A DNA stretch of 64,000 nucleotides from Mustelus asterias (Eukaryota): positions 42,036,001 through 42,100,000 of the forward strand of contig NC_135806.1 in the NCBI RefSeq assembly GCF_964213995.1, read 5' to 3'. A program made the position numbers and the translations under genes. Under the pieces are notes generated by a model. The model ran no database searches and had not been told where the DNA came from. It was given only the letters and a program-made list of their open reading frames with translations. Positions 2,546 through 43,200 of this stretch are shown one piece after another (the stretch's first letter is position 1; every line of letters begins with the position of its first letter).

Positions 2546-2762
2546 TGATGTAGGGATGCCAGCGTTGGGGGCTATCTCCACTGGTGGGGTGGGCACAGTA
2601 AGAAGTCTCACAACACCAGGTTAAAGTCCAACAGGTTTATTTGGAATCATGTGCTTTCGGGGCGCTGCTCCTTCATCAGGTGGGTGGATGAAGCGCCTGA
2701 TGAAGGAGCAGCGCTCCGAAAGCTCTGTTGGACATGAACCTGGTGTTGTGAGACTTCTTACT
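2546..2762. mobile_element. Short palindromic Penelope-like (pLTR) insertion A
   Basis: Inverted arms bounded by AGTAAGAAG (2597) and CTTCTTACT (2762); tail on the left side only; flanks ATGATATGAAT/ATGATAAGAAT form a probable TSD. Confidence 0.8.
2694..2725 (+). ncRNA. Minimal hammerhead ribozyme motif (Penelope pLTR); 3' strand of helix I deleted
   Basis: CTGATGA-A-GGAGC/AGC/GCTCC-GAAA-GC-TC. Confidence 0.65.
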
Positions 2763-3074
2763 ATGATAAGAATGGACTAGGACACTACCCTGAGGAACTT
2801 CTGCAGTGATGATCTGGAATACAATGGATATTCATGGACGCACAGCCGGGACCATCACCCCATGTGCCTGCCACTGATTTAATCTCTAAATTTGAACCCA
2901 CCATTGGGAAAGCAAACATTCGGCTCCTGCCCAAAGTAATACCATTGTCGACTCCATAAAATCTCCCTCTCTCCACAGGCGCTGTTAAATCTTCTGAGAA
3001 TTTCCAGAATTTTCTCATTTAACTTCAGCTCACAACAGCCACTCAGTCTCAGAATAATCTCCGAGCAACCGCCA

Positions 3075-3420
3075 CCTGCCCGGGGGCGGGGCTGGTGCGG
3101 GGTCAGAGGGGGGGGCGGGGCCAGGAAAGCGACGGAGCGGGAATGGGGCGGGGCCGGAGGGCGACGGAGCGGGGAGGGGGCGGGGCCGGAGGGGGCGGGG
3201 CAGATGAGGCATGGGGCGGGGCCAGGAGAGCGACGGAGCGGGTCCGGAGGGGGCGGGGCGGGGCGGGTCCGGAGGGGGCGGGGCGGGGCCACGGGTCTCA
3301 GTTCCGATTGGATAGTGGCAAGTGGCGTCACTGGCGCGAGGCAGCCTTCTGATTGGAGCAAGGTGGTCATGTGAGAACGGGGTCAGCGGTCAGCAGCCGC
3401 ACTGTGGGGGCCGCCATGTT
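3075..3420 (+). promoter_or_regulatory. TOMM5 CpG-island promoter
   Basis: About ten GGGGCGGG GC-boxes, inverted CCAAT boxes (ATTGG at 3307 and 3352), a CGTCA half-CRE, and YY1 consensus CCGCCATGTT overlapping the ATG. Confidence 0.85.
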
Positions 3421-3536
3421 CAGGATGGAGGCGCTGGGGCCGAAGATGGATCCGGAGGAGATGCGGAAAAAGATGCGGGCCGATGTGCTGCGCTCCGTCC
3501 GCAACTTCTTCATTTACGTGGCCATCCTGCGGGCCA
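3416..3536 (+). CDS. TOMM5: TOMM5 coding exon 1 (mitochondrial import receptor subunit TOM5)
   Basis: Kozak GCCGCCATG; [40 protein letters not shown] closely matches vertebrate TOM5; phase-1 donor A|GTGAGT at 3537. Confidence 0.97.
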
Positions 3537-4106
3537 GTGAGTGTCGGGAGGAAGCGGGGAGGGGGGAAAATGGTTGGGAATTAGGAATCTGAGGTCATGG
3601 CTTCGTGCTCACGGTCACCGGGAAGCAGAGCAGCTGTCCCGGTCCCGGCAGCTGTACCGGCCCGGGCCCCTGTCCTGCAATGTCCAAACTACGAGAGTTG
3701 GGCCCGAGCAGCGATGCCTCCTCTCCCCCACCCACCCGGGGAGCGGGCATCGCACATGGGCGGCCAGTGAAGCAAATCAATCTCTGGGAGAGACTGCAGG
3801 AGCCGGCCACTCAGCCCTTCAAGCCTACTTTCCTATTCAATAAGATAATGTCTGATTGGTTTATGTTTCTAATTCTACATTCCCATCTACCCCTAATACC
3901 CCTACCACCTCTGCCTTAAAAATATTCAATGACCCCACTGTGTTCTGAGGTAGAGAGTTCCCAAGTCACACATCCCTCTGAGAAAAATTTCTGATCTGTC
4001 TTAAAAAGGTGACCCCTAATTTTAAAACAGTGCTGCTTAGTTTTGGGCTCTTTCACAAGAGGAAACATCCTTTCCATTCCACCTTATTAAGACCATACAG
4101 GATCTT

Positions 4107-4772
4107 AAGGTTAACGTGCAGGTTCAGTCGGCAGTTAGGAAGGTAAATGCAATGTTAGCATTCATGTTGACAGAGCTAGAATGCAAGAGCAGGGATGTAC
4201 TTCTGAGGCTGTATAAGGCTCTGGTTAGACCCCATTTGGAGTATTGTGAGCAGTTTTGGGCCCCATATATAAGGAAGGATGTGCTGGCCTTGGAAAGGGT
4301 CCAGAGGAGGTTCAAAAGAATGATCCCTGGAATGAAGAGCTTGTCGTATGAGGAACGGTTGAGGACTCTGGGTCTGTACTCGTTGGAGTTTAGAAAGATA
4401 TGGGGGGATATTATTGAAACTTACAGGATACTGTGGGGCCTGGATAGAGTGGACGTGGACAAGACGTTTCCACTCGTAGGAAAGACTAGAACCAGAGGGC
4501 AGAACCTCAGGCTAAAGGGACGAATCTTTCAAACAGAGATGAGGAGGAATTTCTTCAGCCAGAGAGTGGTGAATCTTTGCTGCAGAAGACTGTGGAGGCC
4601 AGGTCATTGAGTGTCTTTAAGACAGAGCTAGGTTCTTGATTAATAAGGGGGTCAAGGGTTATGGGGAAAAGGCAGGAGAATGGGGATGAGAAAAGTATCA
4701 GTCATGATTGAATGGTGGAGCAGACTTGATGGGCCAAGTGGCCTAATTCTGCTCCTATGTCTTATGGTCTTT
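4107..4772 (+). mobile_element. CR1 LINE 3' fragment inserted in an older antisense CR1 remnant (TOMM5 intron)
   Basis: ORF 4116..4610 contains LYKALVRPHLEYCEQFWAP...; minus-strand CR1 pieces lie on both sides. Confidence 0.9.
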
Positions 4773-4887
4773 TATACTTCACAAATCACCCCTCATTCTT
4801 CTAAGCTCCAATGGAAACAAGCCCAACCTGTTCAACATGCCCTCATAAGACAACCCACTCATTCTTGATATCAATCTAGTAAACCTA

Positions 4888-5165
4888 TGGGTGGCACAGT
4901 GGTTAGTACTGTTGCCTCTCAGCACCAGGGACCCAGGTTCGATTCTGGCTTGGGTCATTGTCTGTGCGGAGTCTGCACATTTTCCCCATGTCTGCATGGG
5001 TTTCCTCCCACAGTTTGAAAGACATGCTAATTAGGTGCATTGACCATGCTAAATTCTCCCTCAGTGTATCTGAACAGGTGTCGGAGTGTGGCGTCTAGGG
5101 GATTTTCGCAGTAACTTCATTGCACTGTTAATGTAATGCTACTTGTGACACTAATGAATAAACTT
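4888..5165 (+). mobile_element. HE1-headed SINE with alternative tail (also ~10035-10328 and ~43410-43692 on the minus strand)
   Basis: Same tRNA-like head as HE1, followed by CTAGGGGATTTTC...GTAACTTCATTGCA...AATAAACTTTAA. Confidence 0.75.
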
Positions 5166-5254
5166 TAAACCCCTCTGAACTGTCTCCAATGCATTTATAT
5201 CCTTTCTTAAATAAAGAGACTAACACTGCACCCAATATTTGAGAATCCAGTTTT

Positions 5255-5748
5255 GACCTTGGGTGTGTGGAGTTTGCATATTCTCCTCGTGCCTGCGTGA
5301 TTTTCCTCTGGGTGTTCTGGTTTCCACCCACAGTCCAAAGATGTGCAGGTTAGGTGGATTAGCCATGGTAAATACTTAGGGATTATGGGGATAGGGCAGA
5401 GGGGAGGGCCTGGGTGGAATGCTCTTTTGGAGAATCATAGAATCCCTACAGTGCAGAAGGAGACCATTCGGCCCATCAAGTCTGCACCGACCACAATCCC
5501 ACCCACGCCCTATTCCCGTAACCCCACATATTTACCCTGCTAAGTCCCCTGACACGAGGGTCAAGTTAGCATTGCCAATCAGCCTAACCCGAACATCTTT
5601 GGAGTGTGGGAGGTAACCGGAGCACCTGGAAGAAACCCATGCAGACATGGGAGAATGTGCAAACTCCAGACAGACAGTGACCTGAGGCTGGAATTGAACC
5701 CAGGTCCCTGGTGGTGTGAAGCAGCAGTGCTAACCACTGTGCTGCCCT
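5255..5748. mobile_element. Two HE1-like SINE copies in opposite orientation (5255-5420 +, 5435-5748 -)
   Basis: The SINE body is seen on + and then as its reverse complement immediately downstream. Confidence 0.8.
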
Positions 5749-6314
5749 GGTGCAGACTTGATGACTGATTGGCATCAACATAGCCCTGTATAGCTGAAGC
5801 ATAACTTTTTTTTAATGTTCAATTCCTTTTGTAATAAAGGATAGCATTCCGTTAGCTGCCTTAATTGCTTGTGCGTATACACTAACTTTTTGTGACTCAT
5901 GCTAGCAACACCTACATCCCTCTGCGCCTCTGAATTCTGCAGTTGTTCTCCATTTAAGTAACACTCGGTTTCTTTTATTCTTCCTGCCAAAGTGAACAAA
6001 TTCAGATTTTCCCACAACCACCAGATGTTTGCCCATTTACTCAACCTATTTATATCCAACCTCCTTATGTCCCCATCACAACATATTATCCTACCTTTGT
6101 GTCATCTGCAAATTTAGCTACTGTATGCCCCTCATCTATGTCATAAATATATAATTTGCGAAAAGAGGCCCCAGTACAGACTCCTGTGGATCTCCACTCG
6201 TGATATATTACCATCAAAAAAACACCCATTTTTCTGCCAGCCAGCCAATCATCTACTCATGCTGATATGTTAACCCTGACACAATGAGCTTTCATTTTCC
6301 ACAATAACCTTGGA

Positions 6315-7330
6315 TGTACTGTGACTGTGTGGAGTTCCCCACAACAGATGTAGAGAGAGAGAGACTGTTCCAGGCTTGAGAGACGAGGAGAGATGAGCTG
6401 TACCCGGATAGAGAGAGTGGAGGAGAGGTAGGCTGTACTAGTTTAGGGGCACAGAAAGAAGAGAGAGAGACTGTACTGTGACAGAGAGAAGGGGATGAGC
6501 GATGCTTCACTGGGAGAGACTCTATTGGGACAGAGAGAGGGGGGTGAGCAATGCTGTACAGGGAGGCTGTAGTGGGACAGAGAGAGTTGGTGAGAGAGGC
6601 TCTATTGGGAGAGAAGGATAGAGACAGTAAGAGTTTTAACAGGTTAAAGTCCAACAGATTTATTTGGTAGCAAATACCATTAGCTTTCGGAGCGCTGCTC
6701 CTTTGTCAGATGGAGTGAAAATCTGCTCTCAAACAGGGCACAGAGACACAAAATCAAGTTACAGAATACTGATTAGAATGCGAATTCTAATCAGTATTCT
6801 GTAACTTGATTTTGTGTCTTTGTGCCCTGTTTGAGAGCAGATTTCCACTCCATCGGACGAAGGAGCAGGGCCCTGAAAGCTAATGGTATTTGCTACCAAA
6901 TAAACCTGTTGGACTTTAACCTGGTGTTGTTAAAACTCTTACTGTATTTACCCCAGTCCAACGCCGGCATCTCCACACCAGGATAGAGAGACAGAGGTGG
7001 GGTGGAGAGCCTGTATCGGGATAGAAAAACAAGGGGAGAGGGAGAGTGTACCAGGATAGAGATGCCTGCGGTGATGTGGGATGATGGGGGGGGAGGGCAG
7101 CCTCTACTGGGATAGGGAGAGAGTTGGTGAGAGGCGCTGTACCAGGATAGAGAGAGAGGGAGAATATACTGGGGAAAGAGGCACTGCACTTTGGTAGATT
7201 GTGGGCTGAGGAGTTGGGAGTGCAGAGAGATGGATTGGTGGAGGGCAGCTGCACTGGGGACATAATCAGAGGTCATGTATGGCTGTATTGGGAAGAATTG
7301 GGGCATCTTCTGGAATAGATCCCATGTGTA
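6315..7330 (+). repeat. Degenerate GA-rich minisatellite (unit like CTGTACTGGGATAGAGAGAG...) split by Penelope insertion B
   Basis: Recurrent CTGTAC/CTCTA + GGGA(T/C)AGAGAGAG units on both sides of 6625-6980. Confidence 0.7.
6624..6978. mobile_element. Palindromic Penelope-like insertion B (TOMM5 intron)
   Basis: Arms of ~155 bp around a centre near 6780; tail CCCCAGTCCAACGCCGGCATCTCCAC on the right only; GGATAGAGA on both flanks; hammerhead motifs at 6677-6713(-) and 6850-6886(+). Confidence 0.88.
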
Positions 7331-7953
7331 GACTTTACTGGGGTATGGGGGAAACATCTTGAGCTAAAGCTGCAATACATTTGGTGTGGGGAGGGGTGTT
7401 GTAGGTTTGCTAACATTTTGGGATTTCTGATCTTTTTCCTGTGACCCTGAAAGGGTCGATGTTTCTAGTTGAGCCTCCCAGTCAGAAGTGCTAGGAAGTG
7501 TTATCTTCCCTCCACTACTCCATACAGTTCAGAAATTGAATGTAGCATAAATCAGTCCCTCAGCCACAGCAATGTCACTCCTATTACAAACTGAGAGACC
7601 AGATGTAATGTGTACAAAAGTCTCAACAATTTCTCTTGTATTATTTTGCTTGACATCGATAATCAAATCTTCTAACAGAGATTCAGTTGATTTACCGTAG
7701 CACTGAGCAAATCCCCATTGGCTTTTTGATGTTTTTATGGCTTTTTTATTTTCATGTACAAGTATTGAGGCAAGAAGGTCCAAATGCAAGTATTTTTAAT
7801 AAATAAAGGCTATTGGAGCTTGCATGTCTGTTAATGTATCTAAACTCAACCAGCCTACTTTCACATCGTAATTCTCTCCAGTACATATTTATGATGCCCT
7901 TTACAAATTGCTTTAATCTGCAAATTATATTAAATGATGAATTTGTTTTCCAG

Positions 7954-7988
7954 CTCCATTTATCCTAATGAAACTGGATAGTATTTGA
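7954..7988 (+). CDS. TOMM5: TOMM5 coding exon 2
   Basis: Acceptor TTTGTTTTCCAG; the spliced frame gives TPFILMKLDSI-TGA (human TPFILKKLDSI); total 51 aa. Confidence 0.97.
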
Positions 7989-8981
7989 ACTTCGCTGCCC
8001 GCAGAGATCAGCATGGTGCAGGACAATCATCAAGCCGTACTTGATCCTCGTTGGTACAGAATGATAAAATGAATGTGGACAATTGGGAATCATAGTGCTG
8101 CGAAGAAATGGATCATTTAAACTCAGCTAAAGGACAAACTATCAACCCTCAACATATTAGAAACTCTTCTGCCTATGGAACTGGATTAATTGCTGGTTAT
8201 GCTTATCTCACATTGACCATTCCCCGTGTTATTTCATACAAGGACTCTGTTGTTTTGTGATTGTTTTACACCACAGATTCGCTGCATGCACTAACGTGTC
8301 AGTGTGCAAAACAAAACCTGTGTTTATAACACTTTTTGTCTGCCCTGAGTGTGAACCTGATCCACAATCCACCTGATTTTGAGATCAGCTGAATTCCCTC
8401 CTTTCTGGGGAATCGTGTAGGAATTGCAGTATTTGATAACTGTGCCTCAGTGACACAAAACTAATATTTTGAACCTGTAAGGAGTACATGACTGAAAAAG
8501 ATATGAGATACTTGCTATACCTCCAGGCTTGAGGGGTGCAGTGTAAGAAATGACACGAAGCAGTGATACTTTCCCCCCTGTGAGTTTAGTTGACGTTTTT
8601 TCACTAGATTTGCTTTAATAATTGGATTTGCACAAAAAAATCAATTTTCATATTGGATTATCTATTAAAACTATTGATAATTTTTCATTTGGTCTGATTA
8701 AAGATTACAAAATCTCATGTTACTTGCACTGATGTAAAGGTCACAACTCTGATTTCAAAGTTTTTTCTTAAGCCACTTGTTACATTCTCCTTTACATTTT
8801 CATTCCTACTTTTTTTCTTTAATCTATCTAAATTGTAGTGTAACTTGCTGCTACATTTTGACCTTCCTCTGCCTTCCAAATATCTGTAAAAGCTTTAAAT
8901 TGTGCTGCACATCAGTGGTTTTCGTTGATTAATTTACTTTTATTGAACCGAGAGTGATAGTTGGATTATGTTCTTTTAAGC

Positions 8982-8987
8982 AATAAA
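8982..8987 (+). terminator. Candidate TOMM5 polyadenylation signal
   Basis: AATAAA ~1 kb after the stop, at the end of a repeat-free AT-rich 3' UTR-like stretch; ATTAAA variants also occur upstream. Confidence 0.45.
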
Positions 8988-21480: not shown

Positions 21481-24044
21481 AAGGCACTTGTTGGTGCCAT
21501 GGTAACTGTTACTGTTACTCCATTTCCGTTGTTAGGAACCAGTGGGCCACTGGGAATGATGGTTGTTCTGTCCTCTGTGCAACCAGTGAGATCCCATCTT
21601 CCTGATTGGCCACTTGCAATGAAGGAACTGCCTAATTGTTTGTATATCCTTGTGGTTTCATTGGTATATTTGGTAATTGACCTCCAACACATTAAATCAA
21701 GGTGACAACTGCTCTACACATGTCCCAAGTTGCAATGTGGGCCAACTCCTGTTGAGAGCATTGAAGGTTTATACTCTGATTGACTTTCCAATGCTCACAT
21801 CTGGCAATGATTTGGCAATTTTGTCAAAATGAAATGTGGTTTTCTGCCCCTTCACTTTGATATTTTTACTCATGCCTGTTATTACTTCTGGTTTCAGTAG
21901 CTTTTTTGCTGCTGGAAGAATAGTTTGGGTGCAACATGACATTAATCTTTGGACTGGACTACTTTCCATACCTTCACTCAATGTGTTTCTCCATTCAAGG
22001 ATTGCTTTGTGTACATCAATGCCAGGCTTGCTTGAGTTCCTTGATGATTTATTTGACGATTGTTGTGAGGTCTTTTCAGAAACTTCAGGTAATACAAAGA
22101 CTCACGGAGTCAGTGTCTCGGTTAAAGATGTATCTTTATTTAACCAACAATCGATGGGAGAGATTAGCATTGGGCAGTCCAATGCCTTTCTAGAAGAGAA
22201 GGCCTTGAACATTCCAACACCACTCTGAAGTTACAATGTATCAAGACAGATCAATTACACATTTCCCAAATGTTACTTTCCCGCCCATCCAGTAGTTATG
22301 AACCAGTCATCATTAGTACAAATCAATCTATGTGCATAATTAGTGTCTTAATTACCTGATTATTTGAAATTTCTCTAACCTACTATGAATTTCTCCAACA
22401 GCGATTTTCACTGCCACTTCAGCCTTTCCATTTGATTGGCAATAGTGCAAAGTTATGTTTAGTGTTTAATTTTCCAATACTTTGTGAAGCAGCTGGTTTC
22501 TTCATGTGTGGACTGAGGGCCAATGTCACTCATCACAATATCTGAAATGCCACAATGACCGAAGTGTGCTTTCAAGCATTCTACTATCTCTCCTGTCATT
22601 CTTGAGGTCAGCTGGTCTACGTCCCACTAGTCAGTGACAAGATAATCAATTCTTGCTACAGTGAAGAGGTTTGGGATGTCATACGTCACCAACAGTCGTC
22701 TAGTTGTTTAGTTTGGTGCTGGATAAGAGCACTGTACTGGTCAAGGTGGTCTTTAATTTCATTAATCATGTTTGGCCAATAGAGCACTCTTCTTGCCTCC
22801 CTCAGACTCGATTCAATTCCTTGAGGTTTGCATGGATACACTTCAGCATCTCTCTCTCAACTCCTTAGGAATTATGACTCTTTCCTTTGTACAAGATGCC
22901 ATCTTGGGCTGTCAGTTCATCTCGATATGCTCAATATGCTCCTGTGACCACAGCTGTGTTCTTGATGCTTTTGGGTCATTATTTCATCACTACTTCTTGC
23001 AGCAGTTGGAGAGTTGTATCATGTTGGGTAGTTCACTTGATTTGTTCAAGGTGCTTGTCTGTCAGAATCAATGGTTGGGATTCTCCCAAAAAAACCTAAG
23101 TGCCCAACGGGCTGGAAAACGGGAGAATTTCCCACCTGTTTTTTGGGCGTACTTACCTGAATGGATCTCCAACACTCTGTGCATCACAGAGTGTCTCAGA
23201 GGGATTCACTGGAAAGGTGGGGGGAGCTCATCCCACTGGACAGGCCGGAGGAGAGTGCTGAGCGGCCACTGCGCATGCACCAATCTGTCAGTGGGGAGAT
23301 TGGCACATGCACACTGGCCGCCAACTCTCTCTACCACCCCTCCCCAACACCTCCCCCCCCAAACGCCCCACCCCCCCCCCCCCCAGTCTCCAACCTCCTA
23401 ATCACTGGCCTTCACTTTTAAAGATATCGCTGACATGAAAGAGGATAACAATCAAAAAACAAGCTGCAAGTTGTGACATTGGGATTCTTATACATGATAA
23501 TGAGTAAAATATCATGTTAGGGGTTAGATGTTGCTCAGAAATAAACTTCTGTTTATGACGATGTGCTTCTTTGAAAAGCAGATCGAGTGAGCAAAATAAA
23601 TCTTCCCAGGCCCTTCAGGGTGCCCCTTGGGCACTGCCAGGATGCCAGGCTGGCACTGCCCAAGGGGCAACCCCCTTGACACCGACTTCCATAGGGGCCT
23701 CAATGGCCTCTGTTCCCACCAGTGGTGGGAAGCAGTTGTAAACCCCGATGGTGGGACCTTTCCCAGTGAGGTGAGACGCTAGCAGGCCCAGAGAATACTG
23801 TCCTGGGCCCTAATCATATGGAAAATCATATACTAAAAATCATATGCTAAAACAATGGGCCAGAGGGACTCGCAATCGGCCGGACGCCAGTTACAAGTCC
23901 CTCTAAAAGCTGATGTTTCCCGGCCCGCTGCACTATTTGAGCAGTCATGATGTGGAGATGCTGGCGTTGGACTGGGGTAAACACAGTAAGAAGTTTAACA
24001 ATATCAGGTTAAAGTCGAACAGGTTTATTTGGTAGCAAAAGCCA

Positions 24045-24081
24045 CACAAGCTTTCGGAGCTCCAAGCCCCTTCTTCAGGTG
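24045..24081 (-). ncRNA. Minimal hammerhead ribozyme motif with intact core
   Basis: CAC-CTGAAGA-A-GGGGC/TTGGA/GCTCC-GAAA-GC-TT-GTG. Confidence 0.75.
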
Positions 24082-24578
24082 AGTGGGAATTCTGTTCACA
24101 AACAGGACATATAAAAACACAGACTCAATTTACATGAATAATGGTTGGAATGCAAATACTTACAGCTAATCAAGTCTTTAAGATACAAACAACGTGAGTG
24201 GAGAGAGCATCAAGACAGGCTAAAAAGATGTGTATTGTCTCCAGACAAGACAGCCAATGAAACTCTGCAGGTCCAGGCAGGCTGTGGGGGTCACAAATAG
24301 TGTGACATGAACCCAATATCCCGGTTGAGGACGGCCTCAACCGGGATATTGGGTTCATGTCACACTATTTGTAACCCCCACAGCCTGCCTGGACCTGCAG
24401 AGTTTCACTGGCTGTCTTGTCTGGAGACAATACACATCTTTTTAGCCTGTCTTGATGCTCTCTCCACTCACGTTGTTTGTATCTTAAAGACTTGATTAGC
24501 TGTAAGTATTCGCATTCCAACCATTATTCATGTAAATTGAATCCGTGTCTTTATATGCCCTGTTTGTGAACAGAATTC

Positions 24579-24621
24579 CCACTCCTGAAGAAGGGGCTTG
24601 GAGCTCCGAAAGCTTGCGTGG
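24579..24621 (+). ncRNA. Minimal hammerhead ribozyme motif with intact core
   Basis: CCACTC-CTGAAGA-A-GGGGC/TTGGA/GCTCC-GAAA-GC-TT-GCGTGG. Confidence 0.72.
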
Positions 24622-27288
24622 CTTTTGCTACCAAATAAACCTGTTGGACTTTAACCTGGTGTTGTTAAACTTCTTACTATTTGAGCAGTGCAGCGAACTG
24701 GGAGAATCCCAGCCAATGTCTCTGCTGGGTTGATGAATTCCAGAGCATGAAGAGCTGCTATTTCATTTTGAACCTGGAAGATTTCACATTCTGTTGTAGC
24801 AGTTTCAACTTTCCCCGTGGTGGGTGCTGCTCTTGACAGCATGTCAGTGATATACATCTGTTTCCCTTGCTTGTATGTGGCATTCAGATGACACCTCTGT
24901 AAATGAAGTAGCATTCTTTCAAGCAGATATTAGCAGTTCAAGAAAAATGCTTTGAAATGGCTTCTGGTTGGGTTCCACTGTTACTTTCTCTCTCCTAAGC
25001 TGGTAGTGATGAAAATGCTGACAAGCAAAAACAACAGCCAGGCACTCTTTCTTGATCTGAGCAGAGCATCGCTCAGTTTGCCTTAATTCCCTGGATACAA
25101 ATGCAGCTAGCTGTCCTTGCTGCATTAGGGATGTTCCAAGACCTGTCTCACTGGTATCACACTGCAAGGTGACTTCATTGATGTCATAGCACTTCACACA
25201 GTCACCAGTTGTTTGATTTTAGTGAAAGCTGCTTCTTATTCTATGCCCCAATACCACAGCACATCCTTGGCAGTGAGCTTCTGTAATGGTTCACACTCTG
25301 ACAACAAATTCGACAAAAGGTTTGCTAAATCATTCACAAATCCAACACATCGTTGGTTGCTACGTTGCTGCTATGGCTCTCACCATGTCAGGATCTGGGC
25401 AAAGACCTTTTTCTGTCAGTGCATAATCTATGTACTTGACTTTGGGCATCTTCAATTGCAATTTTAGTCTTGCTTAGCTTCTGGCTCATCTGGTGAGCTC
25501 TCTCTAGCAGTCGTATTAAATTCAGATCATGGTCAGCAATGGTTTCTTCCATTGTGTCTCCACATCCATAGACTTGCAGATCATCCACTAAGGTTTCCAC
25601 TTCAAAATGATGACTGACTATCTCATGCTGTCCACATTGATTCTTCTGGAGCCATAGAAATGCCAAACAGCATGCACAACAATGCATATCTCGCAAACAG
25701 CATCCAAAATATAATTAGAAAGCTGCTGCTTTCATCCAGCTTCACTTTCTAGCAACCATCCTCCTCACCTTGTGTAGTAAAGATCTTTGCCTTGGCAGGT
25801 TGTGGCAAAATTGCTCCGGTAGTTGGCATGGGGTAATGAGATCTCTTCAACACTATTCTGATCTTTTGGATCCAGGCATACTCTCAGCTTCGATCTCACG
25901 GCTACCATGCTGCTAACCCAACCTGTCGGAGTTGTCACTTTTTAAAATTACTCCCCTCTTTTCGAGCTCTTCAGTCTTGTTTCTTAGCCTTGAATTTAGG
26001 GCAGCTGGAACTCTTCTCGGCAGATGCTGAATTAGTCTGATACTTTCATCTACCTTGAGATGATACTCTCCCAAGTAGACACCCAAACTCTGTAAACACA
26101 TCTTTTAGGATCTGTTCAGCAGACAATGGTTGTGTGTGCTGTGACACATTGTAAATCTCTGTTGGCATGTTTAGGGTTACCAGTCCAAGCTTCAGAGTTG
26201 CTCCAGCTGAGATGAGTCATTGTGTACTGTCTATGATTTGGAACTCCAGATCTTTATTCTTGCCATTGCTTTGGCCTCTCAGACTAAATTGTCCTCCCAG
26301 TATGAGTATTACATCATCATATAGCCTCAATCCTACTTTTGAGAGCTTCATTTTTGGATCACCATATTGTGCCACTTTGCACAGGTCTGTGAAGGTCATG
26401 ATGTCGCAAAGGTGACCAGGCTACAAAGGCCATTTTTAATTCAAAGTTTGAAGCAGTTGGAAATTTAATTGCTGCCCCCATTTTGGGCCACCCTCTCATT
26501 CTGCCTTCCCCACTGCAGCTTTCAAGCTGGAAAGCTTCTGATTGTCCCTCCTGCTTTGTGAGCCCACCTGCGGTCCTTAGTTGGACAGCAAGCCGTTCTC
26601 TATCCATTAATTGACCGTTCCAGGGAAAATCACATTTAGGGATTATTCCCCACATAGTGTGGGCTTCTAACTGACAATTGAACCTGATAACAGAATTCAG
26701 AAAGCAACAGGACAAAATTTGCCCTGTACTCCTGCATATGCTTATGGGGTCCCACCACCCCCTCGGCCCTGCTCAGATCCACCTCCTCCGTGGACCTGCC
26801 CATCCTTCTCTGGCCTGCCCGGATCCCCCTCCTTTTTGGATCTGCTCTTTCTCCTCGGGCCCACTTGGACCTCTACCTCCCTCAGATCTGCCAGACCAAC
26901 CCCACCTCAGGTTTGTCCAGTCCTCTCCATATTAGGTCTCCCCTTACCTTCCAACTGAGCCTACCACAAGGACTGCAATACAGGAAGCCAAATTCTAGGA
27001 AAATTCCCAGATGGTTGGTGTCTGAGCTGTACTCATCCAGGCAAGTAGAAAGTGTGCCATCACATTCCTGATTCATGCCTTGCAGAATGTGAATAGGCTA
27101 TGGGAGTCAGGAAGTGAGTTATTCACCAGAGTTTCCAGCTTCCCCACTCTTGTAGCCACAGTACTTACTATAAATACAGTGATCAAATGTCATGTGATCA
27201 AGCAGTACAGGAATGGTACCAATGATCAACTAAACTACCTGTGTCACGTGATCAAATCTCCAACAAAATAACTAACCAGAATTGGCAA

Positions 27289-27330: not shown

Positions 27331-29642
27331 CATCTCCTCTCCTCTGACTGATTCTCCTGAAAATACTAATAGACTTCCATTACACAAAGAACGTTATTTT
27401 GATAAAGTAACAGAAGTCTGCCTGGGAGACTACTATCCATTGTTTGCTGCTTTCCAGAAAGTTAATGTTGAGACAACTGGGTATAAAATCATTAAAATAA
27501 CTATTCCAGCAGATGTCCAAAGAACAGAGAACTTATGGAACTTCTTCAAATATTTCAGCAAACTTTCTATCACTATATTTTTCACACCAAACTATTTGCT
27601 TTCACACATTCATAGCGATCTTTACAAAGTCATTAATTAGAATTGGCATATACATATAATCACAGATGACTCACTCATTTCAGAGACACGACTACTACTT
27701 CCAAACAAACCCACGCTTGCTTCTGACAATTGTTAAGAACTAATCCTCAAGGAACTGGAACATCTTGGGTGAAAGCAGAAGCCAAGTAGCTGGAAATACA
27801 CAAGTAACTTTCATATGTCAATTAAAGAAAAGATGCTGAGCATCAAGTTATGGAGGTGTTGAGAGAGGAGGCTTATATTAGCCAGTGCTGCAGTCAACTA
27901 GAAAACCTCCAACCAGTGATCCCATGCATTCAACTCACATACAATCAAAGGTAGTTGGAATCCAGACACTGACATTTTTAAGCTGTGATATATCAAGATC
28001 ACATCAGTAAAAATGACCATCAACTGTTGGATTGCTCTAGAAATCCAATCAGTTCGCTAATATCCTTTAGGGAAGAAAACTTGTCATCCATCTCCAGTCT
28101 GGCCTGTATACAACAGGTCAAAGCCAGTGTTTATTCTCTATATTCGCCTCCTCCCACTTCACTTCATACAAACCTTTCAGCATAACCTTTTATTCTTTTC
28201 TTCCTCATGTGTTTATTAAACATCCCCTTTAATGCAACTGTGCTATCTGTTTCAACTATTCCTTGTGCCAGTAAGTAGTACATTCCAACTACTCTCTGGA
28301 TAAAGAGGTTCCTCTTGAATTCCCTACTGATTTATCAGTACAATCTTAAAATTATGGTCGCCAGTTTTCTGTCCCCAAATGTGGAAATATCGCTTCTCGA
28401 TCTTTTGGCTAAAATCAAGTGTCAGATCAAGCCCAATTTGGGATGCAATGCCTTTTCTTGTCAGCTTGGATTTTGTTTGCCTCTCCATGAATTGGATTCA
28501 ATTTGAATTGTTTCTTGGAGCAAGAAAGGAAATGGACGCGGGATTGCCCGGTCTACTCTGCACATTGGCTTTGTAACTTTAAAAATGGAGTAAAACATTG
28601 TTATAAAATCGGGTGATATTTTACAGGGCACTGGTGGAAGGATAGGCAGCAGAGGAGTGCCCAGTAAAATGCTGGGAAGTTATATCAGGAGGACACTGTG
28701 ACACAGCTTGCTGCTGAGCAACTTTACAAGTGATGGGAATGGCAGCATTTGGTCAATTTAGATGATTAAAGGTACAATTAGGAACCATTTTTATGAACTG
28801 CTGGCATTTTGCCAAGAGTGGAGCAGCAATCTCCCAATGGTTTCCTTGGAGGATGGGGAGCATCGCATTCGGAGACTCCATGGACCAAGGAGGGGGCCTC
28901 AGGCAGTGAAGGCCACCCCTGTTGCAAGAAATGTTAATAATTAGATTGAGTTTAGTTTGATGCAATTATCAAGGAATCAAATTAACTTAATATGATATTC
29001 CAATGTAAGTTGCATTCCTCCTTGACAAGTGAAATGTGCCATATTGCCTTAGGCCAAAGTAGGGTTACATTTTACTACAAGTCAAATGTTGGAGGAAACC
29101 CACTGTTACATTTTATGACTTGATTACAGGACAAATGTAAGGTCACTTGTAGTTTAAAGCAAATGTTGCAAAGATTCTTAAGGTTGGATAAATTAGACTC
29201 TGGGAAGTGATTTGTTTTATTCATTAATGGGATGTGGGTGTTGCTGGGCCACCATTTGTTGCTCATCCTTGAGAGTATTTAAGTGTCAACCACATTGCTG
29301 TTGATCTGGAGTCACATGTAGGCCAGACCAGGTAAGTACAGCTGATTTCCTTCCCTAAAGGACATTAGTAAACCAGATAGGTTTTTATGACAATCGACAG
29401 TGGTTTAATGGTCATGGTTAGATTTCTATTGAATTTAAATTTCACCATCTGCCGTGGTGGGTTTCGAATCTGGTTCCTCAGAGCATTACCCTGGGTCTCT
29501 GGATTACTAGTCCAGTGACAATACCACTGTGTCACTGCCATTTAACACTTATCATGCTGTAATCCACTCAAAAACCTACTCTGTGAAGTAAAACAGTTTC
29601 AGGTCTCAAGATACAGTTCTATGTCTTAAATTGACTTAGCTT

Positions 29643-32754: not shown

Positions 32755-32920
32755 AAAGCAAAATACTGCAGATGCAGTAACAAAAACAAAAACTGCTGGA
32801 AAAGCTCAACAGGTCTGACAGCATCTGGGCAGAGAGAATAGGGAAAAGAAAGAACACGAAACATTGGCTCTATTCTCTCTCCACAGGTGCTGTCAGACCT
32901 GCTGAGATTTTCCAGCATTG
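32755..32920. repeat. Short inverted repeat of a second dispersed family (single arms at ~2965-3020, 48598-48650, 58170-58262)
   Basis: TGCTGGAAAAGCTCAACAGGTCTGACAGCATCTG...GAGAGAATAG versus CTATTCTCTCTCCACAGGTGCTGTCAGACCTGCTGAGATTTTCCAGCA. Confidence 0.75.
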
Positions 32921-33959: not shown

Positions 33960-36030
33960 TTGTTGTGTTCTGAAATCAGGTGGGAGTTCTTTTCGCTCAA
34001 ATATCCATAACATGAGTGCATGGAATATTGAAGACCTCAGCTGGAATACCTTCAGGAATGCAGGCTTTGTTGTTCTTCATCTATTTGATTGCTTTGAGAG
34101 TGGATGACCCATGGATTTTACCACAAGGTACAGGGGGATAGCCTGGAGAATATCGGCTGTCATGCTTGGGGACCTGTTCAAAATGTTTTTTCCCGCATTG
34201 ACGGATGATATTGTCATCCTTAAGAAGAGAAACACAACCCTGAGAGCAAAGAGAATTTTGTCCATTTGACTTTGATCTAGAGATAATGGCCTTGGTAGTT
34301 TCAAAATGGCTTTGTATGTCATGACAGTCAACATATTGTTGGATCTCTCAGGCTTTCTCTTCCCACCATTTGTCCTTTATCTTCCAGAATTGTCTTTAGG
34401 TGTCAACCGTGAGCTGTTGGAATGCTGTCTTCTTGATTTGCGACCTTGGATTGACCTGCCAGGCATTGAAGGCTATTTGCTTTTGCTTCAGATTGCGGGG
34501 GGAGGGTCTTATATTTCAGCATCATTTTTATCGAATCAGTCCTGGTGACAATGATACTCAGACCCAATGGTCTCGATACAGGCATCTGTACAGCTGACTT
34601 ATTTGATTGCACTCTTCTGGAATTCAATTGGGTGTGTGGAAGTTTTCTCGGTCGATCGTGAACTTCCTTGGGAATTCCTCTCTTCAGTCGGATTGCTTTA
34701 GGGTTGAGAGATTGTTCTTTTTTTTGGACTTGCGATGTCTTGGTGCAAGGCAGATATTCATCACTGATCGAACAAGTTGATGATCTGTCCAGCAGGCATC
34801 AGTTCCCCACTTGGATTGAGGCATACGGACATCACTTAGCTCTTGCACCCGATCAATAAAATAATCCAGAAAGTGTCAATACTGCGATCTAGGATGTCTC
34901 TATATGGTTTGGTATTTATCCTTCTGGCAGAAGAGGGTGTTTGATATCATGAGGCCATAAGCTCACTTTGTCAACAGGGGGACTTCATTTGCATTGTTTC
35001 TTCCCACACAACTTTTTCCAAATGGTTCTGTTCCAGACATTAGGTCAAGGCCAACCCTGGGATTAAAGTCACTCAGAAGAATGATAATTTCTTCTGGGTT
35101 GGCAGTGAGGATTTCATCCTTCATTTATACAGTTGGGAAGTTCTGGCAGTACCTCCTAGATTCTATTCCAGGCAGCATAATCAACCTGGTGATCTTGAGA
35201 ATCGCTGTCAGCCTTTCCTTTTCAGTAGAAGTTGAATCCCCTTGCTTGTTCCTTCAGCTACCCCTACTTAGGAAGACATCTCACTGAGGGTGGTGATGTC
35301 AATTTGGAGTTTTGATAGTTTATGTGATACGACTGCACTTCTTCTTTCCAGACAGTCATTCTTGAGATTATTCATAAGTGTTCTAACATTCCAAGCTGGA
35401 AAGTTTAAAGTTTTCTTCCTTTGACCACAAAAAGCCCTGCAGAATGTGATTCCCCAGTCAGGCGAAAGCGGACAGCCTATCTTTAGGGCATCTTGCCCCA
35501 TCCCCACTGGGGTGAGTAGGAGGTATCCTGAAGAGAACTGCTCAGTCACAGATGTTGCTGCCCAAAGACACCTCTGTCCCAACACAGGCATCCAACCACC
35601 TTTATGTGTCTGTCTCCTGTATGCAGATTCTTTACTAGGGACTCCAAGGTTTACAGTCCTGTCCCCCATTGCCAATCCTCCAAAGACACAGGACTTGGCA
35701 TTTATAATAGACCCTGGTAGAAGCCTAGGCATGACTTTGTGTAATATGGGGACCTTGGGATGCCGATATTGTCCTCGAGACTTTGACAGGTTGGTGACTG
35801 GATTTTGGTGACATGCTAAATCACGATGACTGGGATCACGATGACTGGGACCACCAAACCTCCTTCCCCTGTTCTGCCATTGAGCACTTTTGGAATGCAT
35901 TTTGTCCAACACCTCCTCCTGACCTTGCTACCACGGGTGTCCCTGCAAGGAGCAAGGGGCTCCTGACAGCATCACTCAAAGGATCATTAGAGTGCACAAA
36001 TGTCCATCATGTCAAGCCAACAACCCACGG
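33960..36030 (-). mobile_element. RTE-clade LINE, 5' portion (5' region, AP endonuclease, linker)
   Basis: LNFPAWNVRTL...ERRSAVVSHKL..LQIDI..LSE is the RTE endonuclease N-terminus; further degraded ORF pieces lie downstream. Confidence 0.8.
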
Positions 36031-37027
36031 TAAAGTTCCAGAGCCTGGGGCTTAGATGACTGAAATCAAAACTACCAATGGTGGGACAAAGTGAGGAGGG
36101 ATTCACAGGAGGCCAGAGTCTGAATCATGGAGGGTTCAGGAGAAGTTGTAGAGCTGGAACAGGTTTGGAAGAGATGAAGCCATAAAGTGAATTAAGCACA
36201 AGGATGTAAGTGTTATTTTGGAGACATTGGTGGAGTGGATATTGCACACACAAATGAAACATAAGCAAGATCTGGTGCTTGATAGGATAACGGCAGCAGT
36301 GTTTAGGTTGAACTGAAGTTTACAGAGGGTGAAGGAGAGCTAGGGGAGCCTTGGAATGCCACTTTTCTTTATACATTAGTTATAGTTGTGTTGGATAAGC
36401 AGAATTTCCATGGTGAATTACACTTCATAAAATGTCGCCCCATGAAAAAATAATTCATACTTCACATAATTCTTCCCAGAGGACTATCCTCTATTTGTAG
36501 CATGGAAATAAATCATTTCAGTCCACTGTGTGAAGTAGTAAACAATGATTCACATGTGAAATATAGCATCTTTCCACAAACTACATAACAGTTAGCAGGC
36601 CACAATAGAATACCATAAATCCACTGGGAAAAATTGCAGGCTGAACATTCCCTGGGCTGTTTCAATGGGAGGTTCTCTAACCTGTTTAAAGGGTCACAGC
36701 CGGGCTGTTTACACATTTGAAAGTTGCTTGCTCTCGAGTTTAACCCAGTTAAGTTTAATATTGTGCCTATGGATATGAATATTTTCTGTGTTGGGTGCTA
36801 CATCCTCATTTAATTCAATCAATAGTGAAGTGGGCTCCTGGCCTGTCTTGGTGAAGGGACTCACCTGAAATCTGAATCAACTTTCTCTATTAAATGCTAA
36901 GTCAACTGCTGTGCATTTAAATTTTTCTGTTTTTATTCCAGATTCTGTCGGTTAGCACTGCAAACCAGGATTGAAATTGCACCACAAGAATTGTCAGCTT
37001 TTAAAAACGCCCATGTTTATGTCTTAA

Positions 37028-39510
37028 AGTAAGAAGTCTCACAACACCAGGTTAAAGTCCAACAGGTTTAGTTGGTAGCGCTGCCCCTTCATCAGGTGAG
37101 TGAAGAATTAGGTTCACAAACAGGGCATATATAGACACAAACTCAATTACAAATAATGATTGGAATGCAAATCTTAACAGGTAATCAAGTCTTTACAGGT
37201 GCAGACAATGCAAGTGGAGAGAGGGTTAAGCACAGGTTAAAGAGGTGTGAATTGTCTCAAGCCAGGACAGTTAGTGAGATTTTGCAAGTCCAAGCAAGTC
37301 GTGAGGGTTACAGATAGTGTGACATGAACCCAAGATCCCGGTTGAGGCCATCCTCATGTGTGCGGAACTTGGCTATCAGTTTCTGCTTGGCAATTCTGCA
37401 TTGTCGTGTGTCTTGAAGGCCACCTTGGAGAACACTTACCCGAAGATCAGAGGCTGAATGCCCTTGACTGCTGAAGTATTCCCTGACAGGAAGGGAACAC
37501 TCCTGCCTGGTGATTGTCGAGCGGTGTTCATTCATTCATTGTCGCAGCGTCTGCATGGTCTCGCCAATGTACCATGCCTCAGGACATCCTTTCCTGCAGC
37601 GTATCAGGTAGACAATGTTGGCCGAGTTGCAAGAGTAGGTACCGTGTACCTGTTGGATGGTGTTCTCACGTGAGATGATGGCATCCACGTCGATGATCCA
37701 GTACATCTTGCAGAGGCTGCTGTGGCAGGGTTATGTGTTGTTGTGGTCACTGTTCTCCTGAAGGCTGGGTAGTTTGCTGCAGACAATGGTAGGTTTGAGG
37801 TTGCGTGGCTGTTTGAAGGAAAGTAGTGGGGCTGTGGGGATGGCCTTGGCGAGATGTTCGTCTTCACCGATGACATGTTGAAGGCTCTGGAGAAGATGTC
37901 ATAGCTTCTCCGCTCCAGGGAAGTACTGGATGACGAAGGGTATTCTGTCCGCCGTGTCCCGTGTTTGCCTTCTGAGGAGGTCAGTGCGGTTTTTCGCTGT
38001 GGCACGTCGGAACTGTCAATCGATGAGTCGAGCATCATATCCTGTTCTTACGGGGGCATCTTTCAGTGTCTGGAGGTGTCTGTTGTGATCCTCCTCATTT
38101 GAGCAGATCCTGTGTATACAGAGGGCTTGTCCATAGGGGATGGCTTCTTTAACGTGTTTAGGGTGGAAGCAGGAGAAGTGGAGCATCGTGAGGTTATCTG
38201 TGGGCTTGCGGTACAGTGAAGTGCGGAGGTGACTGTCCTTGATGGAGATGTGTGTGTCCAAGAATGCAACCAATTCTGGAGAGTAGTCCATGGTGAGTCT
38301 GATGGTGGGATGGAACTTGTTGATGTCATCATATACTTGTTTCAGTGTTCACCGTGAGTCCAAAAGGAAGAAAATGTCATTGATGTATCTAGTGTATTGC
38401 GTCGGTTGAAGGTCCTGTGCAGTGAAGAGGTCTTATTTGAACTTGTGCATGAAGATATTGGCATATTGAGGTGCGAATTTGGTCCCCATGGCTGTTCCAT
38501 GTGTCTGGATGAAGACCTCCTCAGAAGACAAACATGGAACACGGTGGACAGAGTATCCTTTGTCGTCCAGTACTTCCCCAGAGCGGAGAAGCTACGACAT
38601 CTTCTCCGGAGCCTTCAACATGTCATCGATGAAGACATGTTGAACATCTCGCCAAGGCCATCCCCACAACCCCACTACTTGCCTTCAAACAACCGCGCAA
38701 CCTCAAACAGACCATTCTACGCAGTAAACTACTCAGCCTTCAGGAGAACAGTGACCACGACACCACACAACCCTGCCACAGCAACCTCTGCAAGACGTGC
38801 TGGATCATCGACACGGATGCCATCATCTCACGTGAGAACACCATCCAACAGATACATGGCACATACTCTTGCAACTCGGCCAATGCTGTCTGCCTGATAC
38901 GCTGCAGGAAAGGATGTCCTGAGGCATGGTACATTGGTGAGACCATGCAGACACTACAACAACAAATGAATGGACACCACTCGACGATCACCAGGCAGGA
39001 ATGTTCCCTTCCTGTTGAGGAACACCTCAGCAGTCAAGGGCATTGAGCCTCTGATCTTCGGCTAAGTGTTCTTCAAGACACATGACAACGCAGAATCGCT
39101 GAGCAGAAATTGATAGCCAAGTTCCGCACACATGAGGACGGCCTCAACTGGGATCTTGGGTTCATGTCACACAATCTGTAACCCTCACGACTTGCCTGGG
39201 CTTACAAAATCTCACTAACCGTCCTGGCCTGAGACAATTCACATCTCTTTAACCGGTGCTTAACCCTCTCTCCATTCATTGTCTGCAACTGCAAAGACTT
39301 GATTACCTGTTAAGACTCGCATTCCAACCATTATCTTGTAATTGAGTTTGTGTCTATATATGCCCTGTTTGTGAACCCAATTCTTCACTCACCTGATGAA
39401 GGGGCAGTGCTCCGGAAGCTTGTGTTACCAAATAAACATGTTGGACTTTAACCTGGTGCTGTGAGACTTCTTACTGTGTCTACCCCAGTCCAATGCCAGC
39501 ATCTCCACAT
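37028..39510. mobile_element. Large two-armed Penelope-like element D (RT C-terminal part + GIY-YIG)
   Basis: Minus arm: FLDTHISIKD..TSLYRKPTD..LHFSCFHPKHVKEAIPYGQA (RT). GIY-YIG region (WYIGET) in both arms. Arms of ~960 bp (37028-37985 and 38513-39475); tail on the right only; flanks TATGTCTTAA/TATGTTTTAA. Confidence 0.93.
39390..39424 (+). ncRNA. Hammerhead motif with one core substitution (GGAA for GAAA)
   Basis: CAC-CTGATGA-A-GGGGC/AGT/GCTCC-GGAA-GC-TT-GTG. Confidence 0.6.
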
Positions 39511-40299
39511 TATGTTTTAAAAAGAAGGGCTGTTTAAACTTCATCTTTGCATTTTGCATCATCCAAGAACAGCAAACTGCCTCTCCACCAGTTATCAATG
39601 GAGACTGGGAAATGAATTTTAGCTATAGCCCTGAGTGGCACATCATGGAACAACCAGGAAGTTTGGATGGGCTGAATTGTATGTCATTTCTTACACCCTT
39701 CAAAGAGAGTGCTTGAACAATAAAGCTATTGAAACTTTAAAGGGCCCAGATGATTCACATTTTTACTGCTCTGTATTAAAGAGTTATTTTTAAGAAGATA
39801 GAAAATTAACACTAAATGACTTTTTTTAAAAAGCTGTTCTTGCAGATTCTGCTACCTCTTTACTTACTCATTACTTCTGCACAGTGTGTCATGGGTGAAT
39901 GGACATGGAAGTGAGATAACTTGGCATGAAGGTTATGAAGGGGCATAGGGTTTGGTATGATCCCTCATGCCCCTCCTTGGCAGGAGGGGCATGAGGGATC
40001 ATAGAGGCTGGATGGGGACCTCGCCTTGGCACAGGGACCATAGGGGCTGGTGGGGTGTGGGTCTTTACTTTGACATGGGGGGGCATAAGAAGCCATGAGG
40101 GGAAGAGGGGGGGCGGTCTTACATTGGTATGTGGAGGCATAAGTAGGACCTTTTGAACTTAACTTTAAAAGCTCCCCTCACACAGACTATGATTCATGAT
40201 TTATGTGAGGGCGCCAATGAGTCCTTTAATAGCCGACCCAACTGCATGAAAACTGCAGAGGACTAGTCATGTCTGTCCCCACAATGGAGCTAACCAGGT

Positions 40300-43200
40300 C
40301 AAGAGTGCAGGGTGTGGGATATAGATAGTTTAAGTGAATGGACAAAAATTTGACAGATGGAGTATTACATGGAAAGATGTGTGGTTATCCACTTTGGTAG
40401 GAAGAACAGGAAAGCAGATTATTATTTAAATAGAGAGAGATTACAATATGCTGCAGTACAGAGGCACCTGGATGTCCTTCTACATGAATCACAAAAGGTC
40501 AGCATGCAGGTCAGCAAGTAATTAAGAAGACAAGTGGAATGTTAAACTTTATTGCAAGGGGGATAGAATCCTACAGTGCAGAAGGAAGCCACTTGGCCCA
40601 TCGAGTCTGCACCGACCACAATCCCACCAAGGCCCTATCCCCATAATCCCATGCATTTACCCTAAGTAGTCCCCCTGACACTAAGGGGCAATTTAGCATA
40701 GCCGATCTATCTAACCCACACATCTTCGGACTGTGGGAGGAAACCAGAGCATCCGGAAGAAACACACGCAGACACGGACGGGATCCGAGGTGAGGTAGCC
40801 AAATGGATACAAAATTGGCTTGATGACAGAAGACAGGGTGGTTGTAGAGGATTGTGTTGCAAACTGGAGGCCTGTGACCAGCGGTGTGCCTCAGGGATCA
40901 GTACTGGGTCCACTGTTAATTGTCATTTATATTAATGATTTGGATGAGAATTTAGTAGGCATGGTTAGTAAATTTGCAGATGGCATTAAGATTGATAGCA
41001 TAGTGCACAGTGAAGAAGGTTATCTAGGATTGCAACGGGATTTTAGTCAATTGGGCCAGTGGGCTGACGAATGGCAGATGGAGTTTAATTTAGATAAATG
41101 TGAGGTGATGCATTTTGGTAGATTGAACCAGGGCAGGACTTATTCAGTTAATGGTAGGGCGTTGGGGAAAGTTATAGAATAAAGAGATCTAGGGGTACAG
41201 GTTCTTAGCTCCTTGAAAGTGGAGTCACAGGTGGCCAGAATGGTGAAGAAGACATTCGGCATGCTTGGTTTCATTGGTCAGAACATTGAATACAGGAGTT
41301 GGGACATCTTGTTGAAGTTGTACAAGACATTGGTAAGGCCACACTTGGAATACTGTGTACAGTTCTGGTCACCCTATTATAGCAAGGATATTATTAAACT
41401 AGAAAGAGTGGAGAAAAGATATACTAGGATGCTACCGGGACTTGATGGTTTGAGTTATAAGGAGAGGCTGGATAGACTGGGATTTTTTTCCGTGGAGCAT
41501 AGGAGACTTAGGGGTGACCTTATAGAAGTCTGTAAAATAATGAGGGGCATAGATCAGCTAGATAGTCAACATCTTTTCCCAAAGATAGGGGAGTCTAAAA
41601 CCAGAGGACATAGGTTTAAGGTGAGAGGGGAGAGATACAAAAGGGTCCAGAGGGGCTATTTTTTCACACAGAGGGTGGTGAGTATCTGGAACAAACTGCC
41701 AGAGGCAGTAGTAGAAGCGGGTACAATTTTAAATAACATTTAGACAGTTACATGGGTAAGATGGGTATAGAGGGATATAGGCCAAATGCGGGCAACTGGG
41801 ACTAACTTAGTGGTTAAAAAAAACAGCGGCCTGGACAAGTTGGGCCGAAGGGCCTGTTCCTATGCTGTAAACCTCTATGACTCTAATGTGCAAACTCCAC
41901 ACAGACCGTGACCTGAGCCAGGAATTGAACCCAAGTCCCTGATGCTGTGAGGCAGCAGTGCTAACCACTGTGCCACCATGCCACCTCGATGGAGAATAAA
42001 AGTAGAGAAGTCTTGTTACAACTATACAGGGCATTGGTGAACTACACCTAGAGTACTATGTACAGTTTTGATCCCCTAATTAAAGGAGGAATATACTTGC
42101 ACTAGTTCAGAGTAGGTTGTTTCCTGGGATGAAGTGGTAGTCTTATGAAGAATTGTTGGGCCCTGATTCACTGGAGTTCAGATGAATGAAAAGTGATCTT
42201 ATTGAAGTGCTTAAGATTCTATGTGTGCTTAAAAATGGTGGTGTAGTAAATGGCGAGGAGGAAAGCCTTATATTACAGGAGGATATGGACAAACTGGTCA
42301 GATGGGCAGAACAGTGACAAATGGAATTTAACCCTGAAAAGTGTGAGGTGATGCATTTTGGTAGGATTAACAAGACAAGAGAATACACAATGAATAGTTG
42401 GACATTAGGAAGTACAGAATAGCAGAGGGACCTTGGGATACATTTCCATAGATCCCTGAAGTAAGCAGGACAGGCAGATAAGGTAGTTAAGAAGGCATCT
42501 GGGATACTTGCCTTTATTAGCTGAGGCATAGAACAGGGAAGTTTTGATAGAGTTGCATAAAATGTTTGCTATGCCACAGCTGGAAGGGTCCAGTGGTTAG
42601 CACTGCTGCCTCAAAGCGCCAGGGACCCACGTTCAATTCTGGCGTTGGATGACTGTGTGGAGTTTGCACATTCTCCCCGTGTCTGCATGAGTTTCCTCCA
42701 GGTGCTCCAATTTCCTCCCACACTCCAAAGATGTGCGGGTTAGGTTGAATGGCCATGCTAAATTGCCCATTAGTGTCAGGGAGATTAGCAGGGTAAATAT
42801 GTGGGGTTACGGGGATAGAGCCTGGGTGGAATTCTGCTCGTTTAGACTTGATGAGCCACATGGCTCCCTTCTGCATTGTAGGGATTCTATGAATCTATGA
42901 GAATGGTGTGTGCAGTTCTGCTTGCTACAAGATAAGAACAGTAAGAAGTCTCACAACACCAAGTTAAAGTCCAACAGGTTTATTTGGTAGCACGAGCTTT
43001 CAGAGTGCTGTTTCTTCATCACGTGAGTCTCAAGATAGATGCCAAGAGGCTATTTCCCCTCACAGCAGTCTAGGACTAGGGCACAGTTTCAGAATAAATG
43101 ATCCTCTATTTAAGATGGAGATGAGAAGGAATTTCTTCTCTCAGAATGTTAATCATTGGAATTCTCTGCCCCAGAGAGCTGTGGAGGCTGGACATTAAAT

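Follow-up and report, generated by a model that had tools for sequence, protein, structure and literature searches.

Minimal type I hammerhead ribozymes have been described in the pseudo-long terminal repeats (pLTRs) of metazoan Penelope-like elements (PLEs). Cervera and De la Pena (2014, PMC4209133) describe the motif, its palindrome, its action as a dimer, the arrangement of copies in opposite-strand pairs and its occurrence in Neptune elements of fish. Cleavage of PLE hammerheads as dimers was also reported by Lunse, Weinberg and Breaker, as summarised in PMC6765202 and PMC6466107. Complex insertions of PLEs that encode an endonuclease (EN+) are characterised in PMC3846280 and PMC8557442 by an inverted 5′-truncated copy, a one-sided tail of 30–40 bp and a target duplication. 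In the Poseidon element PAc of the lizard Anolis, two internal starts of the reverse transcriptase (RT) define the tail, and both target strands are nicked and extended (Frangieh et al. 2024, PMC11167929). The function of the hammerhead in PLEs has been called unclear (PMC8557442); further context on hammerheads can be found in PMC6765202, PMC6466107, PMC7229834 and 10.64898/2026.07.22.740005. Here we study a stretch of 64,000 nucleotides from the genome of Mustelus asterias (NC_135806.1, positions 42,036,001 to 42,100,000; hereafter the window), in which nine such motifs had been predicted, together with copies of the same element elsewhere in the genome.

The nine motifs are copies of one repeat and not independent motifs. 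We think it probable that they are decaying pLTR hammerheads of an abundant Neptune-type PLE whose ribozyme cuts part of the RNA in vivo, and that its two-armed insertions arise by double priming on one RNA. Published work already covers the minimal type I hammerhead, the palindrome at 15.1–16.1, the extra A, cleavage as a dimer and inverted arms with a one-sided tail, and the motifs themselves are ordinary. The parts worth pursuing are a footprint of insertion ends at the predicted cut site and a rule by which a long-tailed arm is paired with a short-tailed one. The PLE literature that was searched contained neither a cut-site footprint nor twin priming; most subscription journals and the supplements of the cited papers lay outside that search and could bear on novelty.

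In structure, the motif agrees with the minimal hammerheads of PMC4209133, as given in its available text, in the type I core without helix III, the palindrome at 15.2–16.2, the extra nucleotide between 9 and 10.1, the G10.1–C11.1 pair, the short helix I, families with compensatory changes, opposite-strand pairs 100–700 bp apart and occurrence in fish Neptune elements. Helix II differs, with 5 bp here against the 7–8 bp given for Schistosoma, and that text names no cartilaginous fish and offers no evidence of cleavage in vivo. By summary description alone, the hammerheads of Lunse et al. share a very short palindromic stem III, dimer cleavage and a tandem thought to supply the partner. The insertions resemble those outlined in PMC3846280 and PMC8557442 in their head-to-head arms, one-sided tail, palindromic junctions, duplications of ~10 bp and partial tandems. 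With PAc the element has in common two internal starts that define the tail, the nicking and extension of both target strands (as proposed here) and a hammerhead, protein-assisted in PAc, upstream of the starts; PAc, however, belongs to the Poseidon clade and carries its hammerhead inside the start of the open reading frame (ORF), whereas here the hammerhead lies 98 nt before the ATG (comparison with PMC11167929).

The parent element appears, from its sequence motifs, to be a Neptune-type EN+ PLE. Two intact frames of 887 aa (locus L043) and 883 aa match RVT_1 (Pfam) above the cutoff, with E-values of 5e-9 and 1e-9. A motif read in the 887-aa frame, YLIRC...YIGET, presumably marks a GIY-YIG-type endonuclease; Pfam gave no match to the GIY-YIG domain. 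The CX4CxxC linker is present in L043 and in the window at 38633–39046, and a CX2-5CxxC linker between RT and endonuclease defines Neptune and is common to Nematis, according to PMC8557442.

A random sample of 160 stretches of 10 kb (1.6 Mb of the 3.68-Gb genome) held 138 element 3′ ends, which corresponds to ~317,000 genome-wide; the endonuclease piece gave 57,420 first-look candidates in the genome. The hammerhead lies ~235 nt after the ORF stop. In two tandems (L056 and L057), same-strand hammerheads flank the ORF at a distance of 3,017 and 3,014 nt, and the ATG of the next ORF follows the predicted cut by 98 nt, at the long-tail end. Insertions terminate at two fixed points, ~60 and ~97 nt past the predicted cut (short and long tail). 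As in other EN+ PLEs, we found a pLTR formed by a partial tandem (L056, L057), an inverted 5′ copy and a one-sided tail, the tail ends being ~35 nt apart. An AATAAA hexamer at window 6899–6904, ~16 nt past the predicted cut, is conserved in all subfamilies. A non-LTR retrozyme, defined in 10.64898/2026.07.22.740005 by short units in tandem that each carry a hammerhead, was rejected as a candidate: the copies in the window occur inverted or singly, and every one has a separate target duplication.

Across the genome, the two arms are joined within 30 nt of the downstream anchors at no fewer than 5,172 loci (at least this number). In the subfamily designated family A, 1,018 arms of short two-armed insertions begin exactly at +1, the predicted scissile bond. 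For comparison, all upstream starts within a 24-nt gap amount to 1,175 together, and 170 arms start at +2 after A or C. The 100 listed upstream arms were distributed, by eye, as 17 at −1, 20 at −2, 5 at −3, 2 at −4, 11 at −5, 21 at −6, 16 at −7, 2 at −8 and 6 beyond. The upstream level is ~140 per base over eight bases, and the +1 count is ~5–10 times the nearby per-base level. An independent pattern recovered 1,047 copies that start at +1 following four non-matching bases. Among the first 50 of 2,164 loci (by eye), the longer arm started at +1 in 15, at −7 in 8, at +3 in 6 and at +6 in 4; a count of 15 out of 50 has p = 1e-8 against a uniform spread over 20 positions. In family B, +1 is reached by 1,530 arms, of which the pattern used follows only 399 as far as −3.

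The pile-up at +1 is likely the footprint of hammerhead cleavage in vivo. Over 90% of arms pass the cut site, which suggests that most templates were uncut or re-ligated. It may well be that the genome holds a base-exact germ-line record of PLE hammerhead cleavage, in which thousands of insertions came from cut RNA through double priming of a single RNA.

The same pile-up could mark a transcription start, an RT pause at helix I or a favoured point of end joining, the hammerhead being mostly an inactive passenger or a protein-binding fold. We consider this unlikely, since the peak coincides to the base with the scissile bond in subfamilies whose sequence differs there, and a pause would be expected at the 3′ edge of helix I (+3 to +6) or, for helix III, at −1. 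In family A, the cut site lacks a palindrome and offers no more than 1 nt of microhomology, and the catalytic core is held across subfamilies. Such a reading would nevertheless fit the pyrimidine/purine step at the family A site, the extra G before +1 in 18 of 50 listed arms (by eye) and the finding in PMC11167929 that cleavage is dispensable in vitro. It would also fit the existence of other sharp peaks: of 50 listed family A loci, 16 have a longer arm that begins 6 nt ahead of the core, in 12 cases following a G (by eye), and the insertion at window 42938–43028 is of this kind. A transcription start with a cap signature at that base was tried and rejected, as 0 of 50 loci start at the homologous base of family B and the G often belongs to the other arm. 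A second cluster of 5′ ends was seen 30–55 nt upstream of the cut, sharp in family A, broad and further upstream in family B; either a start site or pausing at the folded ribozyme may account for it.

The other line of evidence comes from the tails. Two-armed insertions have one long and one short tail each, plus a target duplication of 12–14 bp. In a random set of 38 inverted pairs we counted 31 long+short, 4 long+unclear, 2 short+short, 1 short+unclear and no long+long combinations, so that 31 of the 33 classifiable pairs join a long with a short tail (p = 1e-7). Short-tail ends are also found alone (70 short against 54 long among the 138 random ends), which indicates that synthesis can start at the short end independently. 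The partner arm is a tail alone, beginning at the short site, in 2 of 30 loci (L210 and L228). The two-armed insertions likely come from the element protein priming both cut DNA strands on one RNA. PMC3846280 and PMC8557442 invoke self-priming or endonuclease resolution, whereas the long+short pairing and the tail-only partners seen here favour double priming on one RNA.

Fold-back of one self-priming cDNA, as proposed in PMC3846280, is in our view distinctly unlikely to be the source of the two arms. Its appeal lies in the hairpin-like junctions, the near-identical arms and the long tail on the arm reaching +1 in 24 of 30 cut-site loci. In L204 and L110, however, it is the short-tail arm that extends further 5′ than the long-tail arm, and one folded-back cDNA cannot account for a locus such as L204. 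Both the tail-only partners and the solitary short-tail ends also speak against it. Pieces of the first 30–80 nt of the ORF were seen inside arm junctions at L221:1450–1517, L039:6245–6384 and L080:5397–5527, which suggests that the template was switched to RNA lying immediately past the start sites.

The original prediction tied RNA dimerisation to the two-armed insertions, with two RNAs joined via AGCU and both copied at one site, one arm each. This link is not supported, and we regard the model as very unlikely. The arms lie on opposite strands (a read-through transcript forms a hairpin with 95–96% of its bases paired) and follow the strict long+short pairing, with tail-only partners in 2 of 30 loci. 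When short two-armed loci were sorted by the subfamily label of their downstream part, 2,164 carried the same label on both arms and 16 were mixed, although all subfamilies share AGCU. Additionally, tandem source copies are able to pair in cis. A comparison of each arm with its nearest copy drew on too small a pool to weigh either way; it gave matching labels in 49 of 53 pairs, and among the 4 discordant ones 3 were mis-paired or without a clear duplication. The model does draw on an AGCU that is invariant and can form a 4-bp duplex, on the predicted dimer of the lizard PLE protein (PMC11167929), on the 16 mixed-label loci, one of them clearly from two subfamilies, and on arm junctions centred on AAGCTT. 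The latter are a minority (9 perfect palindromes among 100 listed arms, by eye), and palindromes outside the ribozyme attract junctions too: others centre on GAATTC or GATATC upstream, so the AAGCTT junctions point to ordinary microhomology.

Several points weigh against cleavage in vivo followed by double priming on one RNA. The +1 peak holds only ~2–4% of arms (of the 138 random arms, ~5 lie on it or a few bases away), the most frequent family A junction can be read as either +1 or +2, and a broad zone 20–60 nt upstream of the cut, where 44 of 138 random arms end, is not explained by cleavage. Family B is a confounded replicate, because 27 of its 100 listed arms represent one junction with 2–3 nt of microhomology. 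The tallies made by eye were taken from overlapping lists and cover the places listed first for the two largest contigs. In PMC11167929, no RNA-seq ends fall at the cut and cleavage is not needed for insertion in vitro, whereas here genomic insertions begin at the cut; PMC4209133 reports low activity of minimal hammerheads even as dimers. Same-subfamily arms would also be seen if a single source locus had supplied two RNAs, or if the subfamilies had been active in different periods, and the assignment to Neptune was made by linker motif. The locus C4:131994036–131994141 is a true mixed two-armed insertion of two subfamilies, each arm starting at its own predicted cut.

Cleavage and double priming could be combined as follows. 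Two hammerheads, most simply both pLTR copies of one transcript, would pair via AGCU and so form helix III, and cleavage would occur after the CUH triplet, probably aided by the element's protein, as in vitro for the lizard PLE (PMC11167929). RT would start at two internal sites, one per target strand. On cut RNA it would run off at +1, and the two cDNA ends, once joined, would give mirror-image stumps of 130–200 bp.

If true, this would be the first in vivo evidence of cutting by minimal PLE ribozymes, and it would explain how insertion produces inverted pLTRs and the one-sided tail. It is worth stressing that, with insertion ends piling up at the scissile bond, the role of the ribozyme becomes testable from genome sequence alone, in any species or subfamily, while the long+short arm rule yields a prediction that the in vitro insertion assay already in use can address directly.

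The fold itself was assessed on 51 distinct copies from random regions (60 of 78 eligible arms aligned). In helices I and II, 96% of cells are paired, against 26–53% in slid controls, and the covariation score was reached by 0 of 500 shuffles, a control that ignores the relatedness of copies. Double changes affect only 1 of the 4 pairs in helix I and 2 of the 5 in helix II. At pair 2.1–1.1, which adjoins the cut, we found C-G in 35 copies, U-A in 11, U-G in 1 and no pairing in 4. The predicted covariation of helix I is therefore real but thin, as it depends mainly on this C-G/U-A swap, which was probably one event.

The claim of a fixed core alongside a variable N7, loop II and H17 was also borne out: 0 of 11 core columns and 0 of 2 columns of the central GC vary between subfamilies, as compared with 35 of 103 upstream (56 copies; Fisher p = 0.017 for the core). 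The 50 columns downstream of the ribozyme are likewise conserved (4 of 50 vary between subfamilies), so the core is not uniquely constrained. Among 60 descriptor matches, H17 is U in 36, A in 19 and C in 5, the extra nucleotide between 9 and 10.1 is A in 58 and G10.1–C11.1 is present in 54.

The GC between A15.1 and U16.1 occurs in 60 of 65 descriptor matches and never varies within this PLE family; covariation thus cannot test pairing of the palindrome. The AGCU self-duplex has 4 bp and ~−4.4 kcal/mol (duplexfold). Unconstrained cofolding of two copies favours mispaired extended duplexes, but cofolding cannot represent a double hammerhead, so this result speaks neither for nor against one. 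Four descriptor matches outside the family have non-palindromic dinucleotides (L026:6852, L042:1168, L146:6700 and L157:9118); they are probably not ribozymes, and three of them share one sequence and resemble another repeat.

The prediction of minimal type I hammerheads in Penelope-like pLTRs, without helix III in the monomer, is supported and had already been published (PMC4209133); in the absence of that helix, cleavage likely needs two copies paired via AGCU. The further statement that helix III can form only intermolecularly is not supported, because L056 and L057 each hold two same-strand hammerheads around the ORF, and one transcript can supply both.

In the window, all nine stretches lie where they had been predicted, on the predicted strands (Table 1), within the 3′ pLTRs of five insertions, four two-armed and one single-armed, which are dead by-products of the element. 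The strict CTGA-N-GA...GAAA core is kept in only 4 of 9, and a single copy is fully intact. The predicted cleavage of that copy, 24045–24081(−), falls after GAAAGCUU. The palindromic AGCU in place of helix III is found in seven of the nine and is missing from the other two. Single core mutations, claimed for several copies, do occur (G8>A, U4>G, A13>G and C3>G).

The structure descriptor gave 6 matches in the window, whereas 200 dinucleotide-resampled windows averaged 0.05 (maximum 1), so the motifs are not due to chance. Nine is an ordinary density, as element ends average 5.5 per 64 kb genome-wide and P(≥9) = 0.16. A search of the window with Rfam covariance models gave 10 matches at E ≤ 5, none to a hammerhead family, as would be expected for a motif without helix III. 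A match to MIR841 at 6668–6894 (93 bits, cutoff 200) was set aside as merely the inverted repeat, and loose pattern matches at 1568, 4527 and 29462 were discarded for lack of helices.

Table 1. Hammerhead copies and the insertions that carry them (window coordinates)
Feature	Position	Strand	Remarks
Minimal hammerhead	2649–2682	−	AGCA instead of AGCU; both helices mismatched
Minimal hammerhead	2694–2725	+	Core and AGCU kept; helix I lost
Minimal hammerhead	6677–6713	−	G8>A
Minimal hammerhead	6850–6886	+	U4>G; helix II damaged; predicted cut 6882/6883
Minimal type I hammerhead, sole fully intact copy	24045–24081	−	Core, helix I, helix II and AGCU all intact; predicted cut between 24048 and 24047
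Minimal hammerhead	24579–24621	+	Core undamaged; helix I has lost 2 nt from its 5′ strand
Minimal hammerhead	37079–37098	−	Loop II through cut site deleted
Minimal hammerhead	39390–39424	+	A13>G
Minimal hammerhead	42991–43025	−	C3>G; helix II damaged
Two-armed PLE insertion 1	2548–2760		Long tail left (rearranged), short right; target duplication of 14 bp, one mismatch; carries 2649–2682(−) and 2694–2725(+)
Two-armed insertion 2, CCAU/AUGG subfamily	6628–6979		Short tail left, long right; ~13-bp duplication with 2-nt indel; arms 94% complementary, 4-nt spacer
Two-armed insertion 3, family A	23946–24676		Long tail left, short right; perfect 13-bp duplication; arms 97% complementary, 4-nt spacer
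Two-armed insertion 4 with broken ORF pieces	37029–39509		Short tail left, long right; 12-bp duplication with one mismatch; holds 37079–37098(−) and 39390–39424(+)
PLE linker (CX4CxxC) and GIY-YIG-type endonuclease fragment	38633–39046	+	88% identity across 134 aa with the end of the 887-aa frame of L043; within insertion 4
Single-armed short-tail insertion 5	42938–43028	−	5′-truncated 6 nt before hammerhead core; weak ~10-bp duplication; holds 42991–43025(−)

Outside the PLE insertions, the window contains exons of an F-box gene (Pfam F-box) at 51386–52021(+) and 60147–61070(+), probably FBXO10. GC-rich islands at ~3.0–3.6 kb and 44.9–45.4 kb may be promoters. A degenerate fragment resembling U2 small nuclear RNA at 28389–28598(+), below the gathering score, is likely a pseudogene. 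A short inverted repeat at 32802–32910, unrelated to the PLE, has weak matches to three microRNA models.

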